DNA from: Escherichia coli O157:H7
GTDB lineage: Bacteria; Pseudomonadota; Gammaproteobacteria; Enterobacterales; Enterobacteriaceae
NCBI RefSeq assembly: GCF_013167455.1
Contig: NZ_CP038328.1
Direction: 5' to 3' (one strand)
DNA: 64,000 bases
The position numbers and the translations under genes are program-made. Below the pieces are notes generated by a model. The model was given only the letters and a program-made list of their open reading frames with translations. It had not been told where the DNA came from and searched no databases. Shown one piece after another: positions 58,690 to 64,000 of this stretch; position 1 is the stretch's first letter, and every line of letters begins with the position of its first letter.

Positions 58690-58833
58690 GAAACGGGAAA
58701 GCCCCCTCCCGAGGAAGGGGCCATAAATAAGGAAAGGGTCATGATGAAGATACTCATCATCGTGGTGCTCTTAGTGATTAGCTACCCAGCATACTAAGAC
58801 TACCAGGGCGGGGGAAACCCCGCTCTACCCTCA
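58690..58833 (-). ncRNA. Sib-family antisense sRNA (antitoxin), copy 1
   Basis: Minus-strand promoter (-35 TTGACA = plus 58863-58868, 17-bp spacer, -10 TACTTT = plus 58840-58845); transcript spans the ibs ORF antisense and ends at a hairpin near 58700-58722. Coordinates approximate. Confidence 0.5.
58740..58796 (+). CDS. Ibs-family type I toxin peptide, 18 aa (MMKILIIVVLLVISYPAY)
   Basis: ATGATGAAG start after aaagggtc SD-like stretch, TAA stop; IbsB-like sequence. Confidence 0.75.
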
Positions 58834-59018
58834 CTCCTGAAAGTATGCCTTCACGTTCAGAATGTCAATCCGCAGGCTTTGCAGTCTGCGATCCTGCCAG
58901 CAAATATTCTTTGCGAGACGTTACGCAATAATCACAGAGGAAACTATTTTATCCGCAAGTCAGCGATAGACTGAATTCAGGGCGAAAGGAGGTAAGCCGA
59001 CGATTTCAGCGGGACGCT

Positions 59019-59161
59019 GAAACGGGAAAGCCCCTCCCGAGGAAGGGGCCTTAAATAAGGAAAGGGTCATGATGAAGTGGATCATCATCGTGGTGCTCTT
59101 AGTCATAAGCTTCCCGGCTTACTAAGACTACCAGGGCGGGGGAAACCCCGCTCTACCCTCA
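59019..59161 (-). ncRNA. Sib-family antisense sRNA, copy 2
   Basis: Same promoter architecture (TTGACA = plus 59191-59196; -10 TACTTT = plus 59168-59173); antisense to the second ibs ORF. Coordinates approximate. Confidence 0.5.
59069..59125 (+). CDS. Ibs-family type I toxin peptide, 18 aa (MMKWIIIVVLLVISFPAY)
   Basis: Second repeat unit; ATGATGAAG...TAA. Confidence 0.75.
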   Translation: MMKWIIIVVLLVISFPAY

Positions 59162-59346
59162 CTCCTGAAAGTATGCCTTCACGATAAGATTGTCAATCTG
59201 CAGGCTTTGCAGTCTGCGATCCTGCCAGCAAATATTCTTTGCGAGACGTTACGCAATAATCACACTGGAAACTATTTTATCCGCAAGTCAGCGATAGACT
59301 GCATGCATGGCGAAAGGAGGTAAGCCGACGATTTCAGCGGGATGCT

Positions 59347-59495
59347 GAAACGGGAAAGCCCCTCCCGAGGAAGGGGCCTTAAATAAGAAAAGGGTTATGA
59401 TGAAGCACGTCATCATACTGGTGATACTCTTAGTGATTAGCTTCCAGGCTTACTAAGAACACCAGGGGGAGGGGGAAACCTTTCCCTAACCCTCA
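59347..59495 (-). ncRNA. Sib-family antisense sRNA, copy 3 (SibA-like)
   Basis: Promoter TTGACA (plus 59525-59530), 17-bp spacer, -10 TAATTT (plus 59502-59507); antisense to the third ibs ORF. Coordinates approximate. Confidence 0.5.
59397..59456 (+). CDS. ibsA: Ibs-family type I toxin peptide, 19 aa (MMKHVIILVILLVISFQAY), IbsA-like
   Basis: Third repeat unit, nearest yegL as ibsA is in K-12; ATGATGAAG...TAA. Confidence 0.7.
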   Translation: MMKHVIILVILLVISFQAY

Positions 59496-59676
59496 CTCCT
59501 GAAATTATGTCACTCCGCCCTTAGTGTCAATCGACGGCTCTCCGTTCTTGCGAGGCGAATAGCAAAATTTTCTGCGCCGCCGGGCCTAATTCTGAAAGTT
59601 TCTTCGTTTGCTCTTATTTCATTATTGCAATCGGTATGATACCGGACCTCAATAATTCTCTAAGAAAGGATTTCTT

Positions 59677-60336
59677 ATGAGCGAACAAATCACGTTTGCC
59701 ACCAGCGATTTTGCCAGTAACCCGGAACCACGTTGCCCCTGCATTTTGCTGCTGGATGTTTCTGGTTCGATGAACGGTAGACCCATTAATGAACTTAACG
59801 CCGGATTGGTTACCTTTCGCGATGAGCTGCTTGCCGACCCGCTGGCCTTAAAAAGAGTGGAACTTGGTATTGTGACGTTCGGCCCGGTGCATGTGGAACA
59901 ACCCTTTACCAGCGCCGCTAATTTTTTCCCGCCCATCCTGTTTGCCCAGGGGGATACACCAATGGGTGCCGCCATTACCAAAGCCCTGGATATGGTAGAG
60001 GAGCGGAAACGTGAGTATCGTGCAAATGGTATTTCGTATTATCGCCCGTGGATTTTCCTGATCACCGATGGTGCACCAACCGATGAGTGGCAGGCTGCCG
60101 CCAACAAAGTGTTTCAGGGGGAAGAAGATAAGAAGTTTGCCTTCTTTTCCATCGGTGTTCAGGGGGCGGATATTAAGACTCTGGCACAAATCAGCGTTCG
60201 TCAGCCTTTGCCACTGCAGGGATTACAATTCCGTGAACTGTTTAGCTGGTTATCCAGTTCGCTGCGTTCGGTTTCCCGCTCCACGCCGGGAACGGAAGTT
60301 GTGCTGGAAGCGCCAAAAGGCTGGACGTCAGTGTGA
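59677..60336 (+). CDS. yegL: von Willebrand factor A domain protein YegL
   Basis: 219-aa ORF with VWA MIDAS-like start (LLLDVSGSM) and SD aaagga. Confidence 0.8.
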
Positions 60337-61094
60337 GCTGGCGTCTGGTTTATGCATCCGCTGTTGGAACGTCGCACATTAGCGCTGATTTACCTTGTCA
60401 GGATGCCTGCCAGATGCAGGTTGCCTGGCTAAATGACCAGCAGCCATTACTGGTGATGTTCCTTGCTGATGGCGCAGGCAGTGTCTCGCAGGGTGGCGAA
60501 GGCGCGATGCTTGCCATCAATGAAGCGATGGCTTATGTGTCGCAAAAAGTGCAGCACGGTGAATTTGGACTCAATGATATTCTCGCCACGGATATTGTGC
60601 TGACCGTTCGTCAGCGACTTTTTGCCGAGGCGGAAGCTAAAGAATTAGCAGTTCGCGATTTTGCCTGCACGTTTCTGGGATTGATTTCATCGGCTAACGG
60701 CACCTTGATTATGCAGATTGGCGATGGCGGCGTGGTGGTGGATTTTGGTCACGGTCTGCAATTACCGCTTACGCCGATGGTGGGTGAATATGCCAATATG
60801 ACGCATTTCATTACCGATGAAGATGTCGTTTCCAGACTGGAAACTTTCACCAGCACTGAGCGTGCGCATAAAGTTGCAGCATTTACGGATGGTATTCAGC
60901 GACTGGCGTTAAATATGCTGGATAATTCTCCGCATGTGCCTTTCTTTACCCCGTTTTTCAATGGACTGGCGGCAGCAACGCAGGAACAACTCGATTTATT
61001 ACCTGAATTGTTAAAGCAGTTTTTGTCGAGCCCAGCGGTAAACGAGCGTACCGATGATGATAAAACGTTGACACTGGCGCTGTGGTTACCATGA
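60333..61094 (+). CDS. yegK: PP2C-like Ser/Thr protein phosphatase YegK (PphC)
   Basis: 253-aa ORF overlapping the yegL stop; conserved acidic motifs ([12 protein letters not shown]). Confidence 0.8.
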
Positions 61095-63031
61095 AACCCA
61101 CTTTATATACTGCTACTGGTGAGTGCGTTACGCCAGGCCGTGAACTGGGCAAAGGTGGCGAAGGCGCGGTTTATGATATCAATGAGTTTGTCGATAGCGT
61201 CGCCAAGATTTATCACACGCCGCCACCCGCCTTAAAACAGGACAAACTTGCCTTTATGGCTGCGACAGCTGACGCGCAGTTGTTGAATTATGTCGCCTGG
61301 CCGCAGGCAACGCTTCACGGTGGACGAGGCGGAAAAGTTATCGGTTTTATGATGCCAAAAGTTTCTGGTAAAGAACCGATTCATATGATCTATAGCCCGG
61401 CACATCGTCGCCAGAGTTATCCTCATTGTGCGTGGGATTTTCTACTCTATGTTGCGCGCAATATTGCTTCATCTTTTGCTACGGTTCACGAGCACGGGCA
61501 CGTCGTGGGGGACGTAAACCAGAACAGCTTTATGGTAGGTCGCGACAGCAAAGTGGTGTTGATCGATAGTGACTCCTTTCAGATTAACGCCAATGGCACA
61601 CTGCATTTATGCGAAGTCGGCGTGTCGCATTTTACGCCGCCAGAGCTACAAACCTTGCCATCATTTGTCGGTTTTGAACGTACCGCGAATCACGATAATT
61701 TTGGCCTTGCGTTGCTGATTTTTCACGTCTTGTTTGGTGGGCGGCATCCTTATTCTGGTGTGCCGCTTATCTCTGATGCGGGTAATGCGCTGGAGACGGA
61801 TATTGCCCATTTCCGTTATGCCTACGCGTCAGACAACCAGCGACGTGGTTTAAAACCGCCGCCACGATCGATTCCGCTGTCGATGTTACCGGGCGATGTT
61901 GAAGCCATGTTTCAGCAGGCATTCACGGAAAGTGGCGTGGCAACCGCGCGTCCGACGGCAAAAGCGTGGGTAGCGGCACTGGATTTACTACGCCAACAGT
62001 TAAAGAAATGTACCGTTTCGGCAATGCATGTTTACCCCGGTCATTTGACTGACTGCCCGTGGTGTGCGCTGGATAATCAAGGCGTTATCTATTTTATTGA
62101 TCTCGGCGAAGAGGTCATTACCACCAGTGGTGATTTTGTGCTGGCGAAAGTCTGGGCGATGGTGATGGCGTCAGTAGCACCGCCAGCATTGCAATTGCCA
62201 TTACCCGATCATTTCCAACCGACTGGCAGGCCGCTTCCTTTAGGCCTGTTACGGCGCGAATACATCATTCTGATTGAGATCGCACTGTCAGCGTTATCGC
62301 TGTTGCTTTGCGGCCTTCAGGCAGAACCGCGTTATATTATTTTGGTTCCTGTGCTGGCGGCTATCTGGATTATTGGCAGTCTGACAAGCAAAGTTTATAA
62401 AGCAGAAATCCAGCAACGCCGTGAGGCATTTAATCGCGCGAAAATGGACTATGACCATTTAGTCAGCCAGATCCAACAGTTGGGCGGGCTGGAAGGTTTT
62501 ATCGCCAAACGGGCGATGCTCGAAAAAATGAAGGACGAAATTCTCGGGTTACCGGAAGAGGAGAAACGCGCTCTGGCAGCACTTCATGACACTGCAAGGG
62601 AACGGCAGAAGCAGAAGTTTCTGGAGGGATTTTTTATTGATGCTGCCTCTATTCCCGGCGTTGGCCCTGCGCGTAAAGCGGCGTTACGGTCTTTTGGTAT
62701 TGAAACAGCCGCGGATGTTACCCGTCGTGGGGTTAAGCAAGTTAAAGGGTTTGGTGATCATCTGACCCAGGCGGTTATCGACTGGAAAGCGAGCTGTGAA
62801 CGCCGTTTTGTGTTCAGGCCGAACGAAGCGGTAACGCCTGCAGAAAGACAAGCGGTAATGGCGAAAATGGCCGCCAAACGACATCGGCTGGAATCGGCGT
62901 TGACTGTCGGCGCGACAGAGTTGCAGCGATTCCGCCTTCATGCTCCAGCACGGACCATGCCGTTGATGGAACCGTTACGTCAGGCGGCAGAAAAACTGGC
63001 TCAGGCGCAGGCAGATTTAAGCCGCTGCTGA
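61082..63031 (+). CDS. yegI: Hanks-type protein kinase-like protein YegI
   Basis: 649-aa ORF overlapping the yegK stop; N-terminal kinase-like domain (GKGGEGAVY; HGHVVGDVNQNS), C-terminal TM/coiled-coil region. Confidence 0.8.
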   Translation: MVTMKPTLYTATGECVTPGRELGKGGEGAVYDINEFVDSVAKIYHTPPPALKQDKLAFMAATADAQLLNYVAWPQATLHGGRGGKVIGFMMPKVSGKEPIHMIYSPAHRRQSYPHCAWDFLLYVARNIASSFATVHEHGHVVGDVNQNSFMVGRDSKVVLIDSDSFQINANGTLHLCEVGVSHFTPPELQTLPSFVGFERTANHDNFGLALLIFHVLFGGRHPYSGVPLISDAGNALETDIAHFRYAYASDNQRRGLKPPPRSIPLSMLPGDVEAMFQQAFTESGVATARPTAKAWVAALDLLRQQLKKCTVSAMHVYPGHLTDCPWCALDNQGVIYFIDLGEEVITTSGDFVLAKVWAMVMASVAPPALQLPLPDHFQPTGRPLPLGLLRREYIILIEIALSALSLLLCGLQAEPRYIILVPVLAAIWIIGSLTSKVYKAEIQQRREAFNRAKMDYDHLVSQIQQLGGLEGFIAKRAMLEKMKDEILGLPEEEKRALAALHDTARERQKQKFLEGFFIDAASIPGVGPARKAALRSFGIETAADVTRRGVKQVKGFGDHLTQAVIDWKASCERRFVFRPNEAVTPAERQAVMAKMAAKRHRLESALTVGATELQRFRLHAPARTMPLMEPLRQAAEKLAQAQADLSRC

Positions 63032-63043
63032 GCCATTTTTCAA

Positions 63044-64000
63044 TTAACGAAACACCACTTCCGCCCAGCGTGCCAGCCCGGCGGTGACGGAGCCAAAGTC
63101 ATCGCCGCCTGCAATCGGAATGCCCGGCAACTGTTCTGCCAGCGCTTTTTTAATCAGCGGAGAACGGGCGCTTCCGCCGGTCAGGTAGATAACGTCCGGT
63201 TTTTCCTGGGCGTTATCCAGCGCCAGTTGCACCTGTTCCTGAATCCGCGCCAGTGGCTGGCTGAGGGCGCTTTCCAGCCCTTGCTGGCTAATCAGCGTAG
63301 CCAGTTCATCGCTGATAAACGGCAGTGAGGCGCGGGTTTCCGCTACGCTTGAAAGCGCAATTTTGCACTCTTCTGCGCTACGCACCAGGCGATAGCTTAA
63401 ACGCTGACGCCAGACTTTCTGTAGCAGGGCCACTTTTTCCGGTTCGCGGGCATCGCGTACCAGATCGTTAAGCAGACGACCGTTGGCACTACTGTAGAAA
63501 TCACTCTGCGCAGGTACGTCGTTGATGGCAACCGCATTCCACCACGGCAGAATCGGCAGGGCGATGCCTTTTTCGGTTTCGCCACCCATACCCAGCAGTG
63601 GCATCAGGTTTTTAAACGCCAGTGCGATATCCAGATCGTTACCGCCAATACGGCAACCACTGTGACCCAGCAGGCTGGCTTCACGATCGAGACGCGAACG
63701 CCACTGCGGCCCCATCAGCAGCAATGAACAGTCAGTCGTACCACCGCCGATATCCACCACCAGTACCCGTTTTTCTTCCTGTAAGGTGGCTTCGTAATCC
63801 AGCCCAGCCGCTACCGGCTCGTACTGGAATACCACGTCCCTGAATCCGGCACGCTTCGCCGCGCGTTCCAGAATCCCTTGCGCCTGGGCGTTTGCTTCAT
63901 CGCCGCCCAGCCCCTGGAAGTTGATCGGGCGACCAATCACCGCCTGAGTAATCGCTTCTGGCAGCTGCGCTTGCGCCTGCTGGCGAATGTGCAACATCAT
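63044..64000 (-). CDS. yegD: Hsp70/actin-fold ATPase YegD, C-terminal part (5' end beyond window)
   Basis: Minus frame open to the window edge; Hsp70-like motifs (DIGGGTTD, LTGGSARSPLI); convergent with yegI. Confidence 0.8.
   Translation of the reverse strand: MMLHIRQQAQAQLPEAITQAVIGRPINFQGLGGDEANAQAQGILERAAKRAGFRDVVFQYEPVAAGLDYEATLQEEKRVLVVDIGGGTTDCSLLLMGPQWRSRLDREASLLGHSGCRIGGNDLDIALAFKNLMPLLGMGGETEKGIALPILPWWNAVAINDVPAQSDFYSSANGRLLNDLVRDAREPEKVALLQKVWRQRLSYRLVRSAEECKIALSSVAETRASLPFISDELATLISQQGLESALSQPLARIQEQVQLALDNAQEKPDVIYLTGGSARSPLIKKALAEQLPGIPIAGGDDFGSVTAGLARWAEVVFR

Follow-up and report, generated by a model that had tools for sequence, protein, structure and literature searches.

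The yegL-pphC-yegI operon of Escherichia coli O157:H7: a VWA/phosphatase/kinase triad with TerY-P-type architecture

What is the role of the yegL-pphC(yegK)-yegI operon of Escherichia coli, and with which genes does it form a unit? The operon lies at positions 59677-63031, on the plus strand, of a 64,000-nucleotide stretch of E. coli O157:H7 DNA (the window), and consists of three co-directional, tightly packed open reading frames (ORFs). For E. coli, the best-studied bacterium, no Hanks-kinase/PP2C pair other than YegI and PphC has been reported. In an earlier note, made from the sequence of this stretch, the physiological role of the operon was described as poorly defined, and the literature agrees. 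The genes and their enzymology were already known; what is added here is the comparative picture together with a sharpened, testable hypothesis. By comparison with relatives, yegL-pphC-yegI was identified as a self-contained VWA/PP2C/Ser-Thr kinase phospho-switch of the TerY-P triad class. By analogy with the TerY-P systems tested against phages, we tentatively propose that the operon may act in conflict or defence, in response to DNA or phages that invade the cell.

Conservation and genomic context of the triad

Relatives of YegI were scanned with one genome per species, and 80 loci were obtained, 73 of them with enough sequence upstream of the kinase gene. In 70 of these 73 informative loci, genes for a VWA protein like YegL and a PP2C like PphC were found colinear and directly upstream of the kinase gene, and two of the three exceptions carry a different C-terminus of the kinase. 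The same VWA-PP2C-kinase order was observed in all six loci for which genes were called. The 80 loci span Escherichia, Klebsiella, many Burkholderiales, Pseudomonas, Xanthomonadales, Desulfobacteria, Planctomycetes, a cyanobacterium, and Methanoregula. The YegI family as a whole comprises 3207 clusters at 50% identity (E ≤ 1e-30), and most of the best 150 of these 3207 representatives were colinear over about 645 residues.

The earlier note had linked the operon with yegD, the convergent gene for an Hsp70-like protein. By jackhmmer search with YegD, a YegD-like gene was detected within 10 kb of the kinase gene in only four of the 80 loci, all of Escherichia. Since the triad was present in 70 of 73 loci and a yegD-like gene in four of 80, it is the triad that makes up the conserved module, with yegD as a neighbour specific to one lineage; the view of YegD as a conserved component of the system is largely refuted. 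Convergent neighbours of about 500 amino acids (aa) in Planctomycetes and Methanoregula were considered as hidden Hsp70 relatives, and were rejected after they turned out to be T2SSE-GYF ATPases, RNase II, and an ABC transporter; this arrangement in other clades is lineage synteny only.

Neighbourhoods with called genes were available for distant relatives, the kinases of which are about 60% identical. The triad of Klebsiella spallanzanii is accompanied by GmrSD, a type I restriction-modification system, SymE, and BrnA; that of Piscinibacter by BrxR, JetB, an SLFN-type helicase, MazG, and a staphylococcal nuclease-like protein (SNase); that of Chromobacterium by AbiH, a KAP NTPase, and Tn7-type TniQ, TniB, and transposase; and that of a metagenome contig by HsdR, HsdS, HsdM, and Mrr. 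Among 103 neighbours located within 4 kb at 21 proteobacterial loci, PADLOC models matched JetC in three cases and type I methyltransferase, AriA, Old/GajA, mad3, and WYL in two cases each, and Pfam models besides matched ResIII, HNH, resolvase, DNA methylases, and the IS21 protein IstB. Outside E. coli, the neighbours of the triad are thus often genes of restriction, Wadjet, PARIS, Abi, or transposon systems. Full-length homologues were also present on 52 plasmid records, 22 of which are conjugative, and essentially none was found in phage genomes. These observations, which are qualitative, are what is expected of a host-side cassette that moves horizontally and often settles in defence islands.

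Several further associations were observed at these loci. On Pseudomonas megaplasmids (L092:4617-6315 and L093:5119-6820), the triad is a conserved backbone element located just downstream of a pair of genes for an S24 peptidase and a Y-family polymerase (umuDC-like), with HU and TraR/DksA genes nearby and a second HhH-domain protein about 4 kb (L092) or 7 kb (L093) further. Burkholderiales loci, one Pirellula locus, and a metagenome contig carry an SNase gene (PF00565) that immediately precedes the VWA gene and is co-directional with it (L013:7929-8471, L014:8098-8478, L025:942-1373, L046, L062, L008:5917-6501, and L004:5932-6474); in L008 and L004, which represent the same Piscinibacter locus as L013, a preceding ORF of about 70 aa is also present. 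The SNase may serve the triad as an optional effector, and none is present in E. coli. Proteins with DUF4236 recur beside YegL-type triads (L028:7297-8439, L032:3316-4470, L064:11936-13045, and L008:1962-3182), and one is encoded within the classical IncHI2 ter cluster (L094:6838-8046), by terW and the TerY VWA genes. This recurrence is a second thread that links the triad to Ter systems.

Anatomy of the three proteins

YegL is a TerY-type VWA protein, since its identity to TerY paralogues from plasmid ter operons is 29-37% (tblastn, E 1e-11 to 5e-18). A protein search with YegL gave only E. coli copies among the matches listed, and was uninformative with respect to TerY. The metal ion-dependent adhesion site (MIDAS) is complete, and its residues (D27-x-S29-x-S31, T94, and D131) are at least 90% conserved in 77 family members. 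The same level of conservation was observed in these 77 members for the noted positions of the Ser-rich tail, from W191 to G205, all of which save W191 are invariant in nine diverse members. From its sequence, we infer that this tail is a candidate phospho-acceptor. YegL is the best conserved of the three proteins, with a median identity of 66% versus 42% for PphC. PphC gave a strong PP2C_2 match (E 8.5e-49) and keeps the metal-binding Asp residues, with D24, D46-G47, D131-G132, D186-G187, and D241-D243 conserved. When YegL, PphC, and the C-terminus of YegI were compared by sequence with the PDB, no significant relatives were detected.

The kinase domain of YegI is atypical. No Pfam kinase model matched at E ≤ 0.01, and the canonical HRD and DFG motifs are replaced by VGD and DSD. 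The full-length AlphaFold2 model is poor in the kinase core (pLDDT, a per-residue score of model confidence, of 23-40 for aa 131-197) and was used only for the fold class and the C-terminal layout; at this low confidence, it resembled protein-kinase domains by Foldseek (E about 3e-6). The residues of the kinase motifs are at least 95% conserved in an alignment of 110 sequences, consisting of E. coli YegI and 109 diverse full-length representatives. Whether the pair has kinase and phosphatase activity, which the earlier note still regarded as a point that might fail, was settled by studies published in 2018-2020. Rajagopalan & Dworkin (2018-2020) demonstrated that YegI is an active Ser/Thr kinase, that K39D and D141N abolish its activity, that the D-S-D in place of DFG is indispensable, and that autophosphorylation takes place at S153, S160, and S162, serines by this D-S-D motif. 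PphC was found to be an active Mn-dependent PP2C despite the lack of two of the eight canonical residues; YegI is dephosphorylated by PphC and in turn phosphorylates it. Both enzymes prefer Mn, and second-order kinetics have been published for the kinase. The assignment of the three proteins as VWA, PP2C, and kinase in the earlier note is therefore supported, by the Pfam matches (PF00092 and PF13672) for the first two and by the Foldseek result and the published activity for the last.

Directly after the kinase domain, YegI carries a predicted zinc-binding motif. Its four residues, C307, H313, C322, and C325, are at least 95% conserved in the 110-sequence alignment and invariant in alignment A1. 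This region was modelled as two short strands followed by a helix starting from CPWC, with moderate fold confidence (pLDDT about 70-83), and the motif is predicted to be zinc ribbon-like or treble-clef-like.

The C-terminal half of YegI had been described as a membrane or coiled-coil region, and turned out to be both. A transmembrane hairpin, with a peak hydropathy (Kyte-Doolittle, 19-residue window) of 2.31 for the E. coli protein and a family mean of 1.92, was modelled as two helices at 389-409 and from 418 onward. Published PhoA-LacZ work describes YegI as a protein that crosses the inner membrane twice and has both of its termini in the cytoplasm. The C-terminal 207 residues were modelled with high confidence (pLDDT 95.8) as three long helices up, a compact domain of two helix-hairpin-helix (HhH) motifs, and two long helices back. 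The HHH_5 model matched full-length YegI with E 0.0035 and its C-terminal fragment with E 0.0006, and was found in 14 of 32 C-termini of the YegI family (best E 8e-6). Both hairpins, PGVG and GFG, are present in the sequence, and weak profile matches of this region to the HhH extension of L32e and to REV1 were also obtained. As judged from these matches and from the model, YegI probably carries an (HhH)2 DNA-binding domain, mounted close to the inner side of the membrane on a stalk of antiparallel coiled coil. The TerY-P triad class, the zinc motif, and the (HhH)2 domain were absent from the earlier note; added here, the two motifs and the link to the TerY-P triad are the best leads to the function.

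The operon and its flanks in E. coli

Over the 5-kb stretch with the operon, the identity to E. coli O157 genomes is 100%, and the RefSeq gene models of these genomes give the names used here (Table 1). As claimed before, the three genes overlap at their stop and start codons: yegL and pphC share GTGA at 60333-60336 (yegL TGA at 60334-60336, pphC GTG from 60333), and pphC and yegI share ATGA at 61091-61094 (pphC TGA at 61092-61094, yegI ATG from 61091). For yegI, a mechanical ORF list gave a GTG start at 61082, and the ATG at 61091 is that of RefSeq and of the published 646-aa protein.

Table 1. Features of the yegL-pphC-yegI locus (positions in the window)
Feature	Position	Strand	Description
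yegL	59677-60336	+	219 aa; TerY-type VWA protein with intact MIDAS; PF00092, E 1.5e-9
YegL MIDAS DxSxS motif (D27-S31)	59755-59769	+	reads DVSGS; conserved in the family
YegL Ser-rich C-terminal tail	60247-60291	+	W191, L192, S193, S195, S200, S202, P204, G205
pphC (yegK)	60333-61094	+	253 aa; PP2C-family Ser/Thr phosphatase; GTG start; PF13672, E 8.5e-49
yegI	61091-63031	+	646 aa; membrane Ser/Thr kinase; RefSeq model, Foldseek fold, published activity
YegI kinase domain	61091-61990	+	aa 1-300; Gly loop G22-G25, K39, catalytic D141, D159-S-D161-S162 for DFG
YegI predicted zinc-binding motif	62000-62080	+	C307-x5-H313...C322-P-W-C325, directly after the kinase domain
YegI transmembrane hairpin	62255-62398	+	aa about 389-436
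YegI coiled-coil arm, ascending helices	62408-62626	+	aa 440-512
YegI predicted (HhH)2 domain	62633-62806	+	aa about 515-572; hairpins IPGVGPARKAAL and VKGFGDHLTQAV
YegI coiled-coil arm, descending helices	62837-63025	+	aa 583-645
yegD	63044-64000	-	3' 318 codons, cut by the window end; Hsp70/actin-fold ATPase; NF008673, E 1.8e-170
Three Sib antitoxin RNAs	58726-58868, 59054-59196, 59382-59530	-	Rfam RF00113 (SIB_RNA), 140-145 bits each
Three ibs toxin ORFs	58741-58797, 59069-59125, 59397-59456	+	annotated coding sequences

The operon was found, at a query coverage of at least 80%, in 5402 of 5426 complete E. coli genomes, always as a single chromosomal copy. In pairwise comparisons among O157, K-12, and UTI89, the ratio of nonsynonymous to synonymous substitution rates (dN/dS) was 0.04-0.19 for all three genes, similar to that for alkA and somewhat looser than for mdtA and yegD, and therefore purifying selection acts on the triad in E. 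coli. The dS value between O157 and K-12 was 0.13-0.25 for the triad and 0.05-0.07 for the flanking mdtA, yegD, and alkA genes, that is, two to four times higher for the triad (L001, L089, and L090). This difference points to divergent alleles, or to recombination within the operon only. The GC content of the operon is 0.49-0.53 and that of the flanks 0.53-0.60, with no clear sign of recent transfer.

In K-12-type strains, an insert of about 0.73 kb, carrying yegJ on the opposite strand (L089:3983-4444), is located between pphC and yegI, and swaps the first 15 or so codons of yegI (MKTNIKVFTSTGELTT...; the O157 counterpart lies near 61082-61135 of the window). This insertion was present in about nine of 30 evenly spaced E. 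coli matches. Overproduction of YegJ is toxic and induces yegD according to the literature.

The two flanks named in the earlier note, the ibs/Sib toxin-antitoxin array and the Hsp70-like yegD, were both identified, the former by three SIB_RNA matches and the latter by NF008673. The ibs/Sib array is an upstream neighbour outside the conserved module. Three repeats of it are present here in O157, versus two in K-12 and UTI89. The coverage of at least 80% was reached by the 5-kb query in 4348 genomes, versus 5402 for the operon alone, because the copy number of ibs/Sib varies. At the downstream end, yegI and yegD are convergent with 12 nucleotides between their stop codons, and no terminator-like hairpin was found in this gap. 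Scans for promoters and terminators gave sites no more numerous than in shuffled sequences.

The operon had also been counted as the second VWA-containing module in the window, which agrees with the presence of the other one at the window start. This consists of yehL (AAA ATPase), yehM (with an annotated internal stop), and the end of yehP (VWA), and adjoins three DUF4132 genes of the yehI family, two of them being pseudogenes by the annotation of this O157 strain (1-264 and about 2547-3635 of the window, minus strand; L091:34252-49952). Just past the window end, the diguanylate cyclase gene dgcE (yegE; L001:12480-15798) is annotated as frameshifted in this O157 genome.

Possible roles and relation to known systems

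If the triad takes part in a conflict- or defence-type response, as we tentatively propose, the HhH2 stalk would respond, at the inner membrane, to DNA or to a DNA-bound state, such as foreign DNA on its entry, and this sensing would lead to dimerisation and trans-autophosphorylation of the kinase. The published second-order kinetics fit the dimerisation step. Activated YegI would phosphorylate YegL, at the serine tail, and/or other targets, and YegL as the MIDAS protein would serve as the output adaptor, while PphC would hold the switch off and reset it. In E. coli, the locus would have become fixed as a normally silent core locus, with yegD as only a neighbour. The likeness to a bona fide TerY-P locus (L095, see below), the plasmid and defence contexts of relatives, the purifying selection in E. 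coli, and the finding that overproduction of YegL or YegI raises endogenous DNA damage (both are 'DNA-damage-up' proteins) were all counted in favour of this defence role. Rather doubtful, in our estimation, is its wider form, that the triad is the founding member of a very large, unannotated TerY-P-like immune branch missed by PADLOC-type models, in which the (HhH)2 tip of an SMC-like stalk would detect DNA at the membrane and the YegL tail would be phosphorylated, the E. coli triad being a silent, species-wide core DNA sensor.

A number of observations weigh against a role in defence. The operon belongs to the core of E. coli and stays at a fixed site, which is unusual for a defence system, and no obvious effector domain is present in the triad. 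Some triad loci stand in housekeeping or plasmid-backbone contexts (among the gene-called loci, one lies amid housekeeping genes and one more is unannotated), and the tally of defence neighbours is qualitative and without a matched control. The literature gives no phenotype, substrate, or inducing condition for the operon, and describes its transcription as barely detectable or, under laboratory conditions, as undetected. Membership in the TerY-P family as defined by PADLOC and Gao et al. was rejected, as the hidden Markov model scores failed and no OB fold follows the kinase.

Several of these points would be expected of a housekeeping signalling device for stress or growth phase, such as stationary phase or envelope stress, by which YegI and PphC would adjust how far ordinary proteins of the cell are phosphorylated, with YegL as an accessory adaptor and with no role against phages or plasmids. 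Such a device, which we consider possible though on the unlikely side, agrees with the core status, fixed position, and vertical inheritance of the operon in E. coli under ordinary purifying selection, and with the one relative amid housekeeping genes. In the literature, moreover, YegI is among the few known Ser/Thr kinases of E. coli, where many phosphosites lack a kinase; weak stationary-phase expression has been reported; and yegI mutations recur in long-term evolution lines. It agrees less well with the patchy spread over phyla and archaea, including 60% identical copies in unrelated lineages, with the plasmid-borne copies and the repeated vicinity of restriction, Wadjet, PARIS, Abi, and transposon genes, or with the strict three-gene linkage, typical of a mobile cassette but not of a host regulator. 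The DNA-damage phenotype of overproduced YegL and YegI could instead reflect a module for DNA damage or DNA transactions, the HhH2 kinase reporting damaged or processed chromosomal or plasmid DNA and modulating repair or mutagenesis. The S24 peptidase and Y-family polymerase pair beside the triad on Pseudomonas megaplasmids, LexA near the triad in L006, alkA two genes away in E. coli, and the links to DNA processing and repair proposed in the TerY-P literature all point in this direction. The repair-gene neighbours are, however, specific to certain lineages, without conservation over the 80 loci, the phenotypes seen on overproduction are indirect, and the membrane anchoring would be left unexplained, so that we regard this role as improbable.

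Two other proposals appear less probable still. A metal- or tellurite-type stress sensor, in which the MIDAS of YegL senses metal and the kinase and phosphatase relay the signal, would be in line with the similarity of YegL to the TerY paralogues of ter clusters, with the occurrence of DUF4236 proteins in the ter cluster as well as next to several triads, with the metal-sensing phospho-switching proposed for TerY-P, and with the preference of both enzymes for Mn; it is very improbable in that no TerB, TerC, TerD, or TerZ gene accompanied the triad in the loci examined, and the TerY genes of the ter clusters examined had no adjacent kinase or phosphatase gene. Hardly credible is a functional unit with the chaperone YegD, by which the kinase and phosphatase regulate YegD or are folded by it. 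The short gap between the convergent genes, the overlap of their transcripts, their listing in the literature as an excludon pair, and the reported induction of yegD by overexpressed K-12 yegJ speak for such a unit, but the association is restricted to the four Escherichia loci, and the recurrent convergent neighbours elsewhere are unrelated to YegD. Should the defence or DNA-sensing role hold, thousands of homologous triads missed by defence finders would gain an annotation, and E. coli a core-genome immune sensor; should it fail, the pair stays a housekeeping signalling module of modest interest. A very large triad family lies outside the current models of defence systems.

Among the known systems, the Hanks kinase/PP2C pairs PknB-PstP, PrkC-PrpC, and Stk1-Stp1 resemble YegI and PphC in that the genes are adjacent, the kinase is membrane-anchored, and the PP2C dephosphorylates the autophosphorylated kinase. 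YegI differs from these kinases in the lack of an extracellular PASTA or sensor domain, the cytoplasmic location of both termini, and the atypical catalytic motifs, and the triad has in addition an obligatory VWA partner and the predicted intracellular HhH2 domain. The DRA0331-DRA0334 operon of Deinococcus radiodurans (vWA, STPK, FHA, and KI-FHA-PP2C; bioRxiv 2026.01.23.701218) likewise combines a VWA protein, a transmembrane kinase, and a PP2C; its phosphatase dephosphorylates the operon kinase, and was linked by the authors to DNA-damage-response kinases such as RqkA. The gene order there is different, an extra FHA protein and an FHA-PP2C fusion are present, and the likeness noted here is one of architecture.

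Closer is the TerY-P triad of VWA, PP2C, and kinase (Anantharaman, Iyer & Aravind 2012, as described in PMC11090510), which was proposed to be a metal-sensing phospho-switch tied to restriction and DNA processing. Common to both are a TerY-like VWA protein with MIDAS, a PP2C, and a Ser/Thr kinase, all encoded in a conserved operon that is often embedded in neighbourhoods of restriction and DNA-processing genes; the zinc ribbon that follows the kinase in TerY-P may have its counterpart in the predicted zinc-binding motif of YegI. With its MIDAS VWA protein and with both PP2C and kinase in the same operon, yegL-pphC-yegI is, by its sequence features, of TerY-P-class architecture. It differs in the addition of the transmembrane hairpin and the coiled-coil-mounted (HhH)2 domain to the kinase, and in that the E. 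coli triad, a core-genome locus, lacks partners of the McrBC/CoCoNuT or secretion type and stands by itself.

Anti-phage activity, against T7-like phages, has been validated for TerY-P with an OB-fold kinase (TerY, PP2C, and STK_OB; Gao et al. 2020; PADLOC), and protection from Autographiviridae, with survival of most infected cells, is conferred by a TerY-P variant cloned from P. aeruginosa (Costa et al. 2024). No test of yegLKI against phages was found in the searched literature. For comparison, a contig with a bona fide TerY-P (L095) was identified through one of the three published primers for the P. aeruginosa system, the scans with the other two giving no match, and thus represents a relative of the cloned system and not that system itself. 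The L095 proteins scored 528, 290, and 763 bits (E 1e-159, 2e-87, and 7e-230) on the PADLOC models for TerY, PP2C, and STK_OB, respectively, whereas YegL scored 12.6 bits (E 0.017) on that for TerY, and PphC and YegI gave no match. By hhalign, the E. coli proteins matched those of true TerY-P with probabilities of 90% (VWA core only), 0.1%, and 4%, and pairwise and profile comparisons with L095 detected only the likeness of the VWA core and a short match in the catalytic segment of the kinase. The STK_OB kinase of L095 (2128-3798) has GDLQPGN for HRD and IDYDG for DFG, and ends in a hydrophobic tail helix (IPWWVWIVGLWVLIAIF).

The differences from PADLOC TerY-P are that an OB fold takes the place of the HhH2 domain of YegI, that the membrane anchor is a C-terminal tail helix instead of an internal hairpin, and that the anti-phage activity has been shown for the STK_OB type only. 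Shared with it are the gene order of VWA, PP2C, and kinase, a GD-type sequence for HRD and D-x-D for DFG, and, C-terminal to the kinase, a membrane anchor and a nucleic-acid-binding domain (predicted for YegI). The E. coli triad is therefore built on the same plan as the tested TerY-P, yet stands outside that family.

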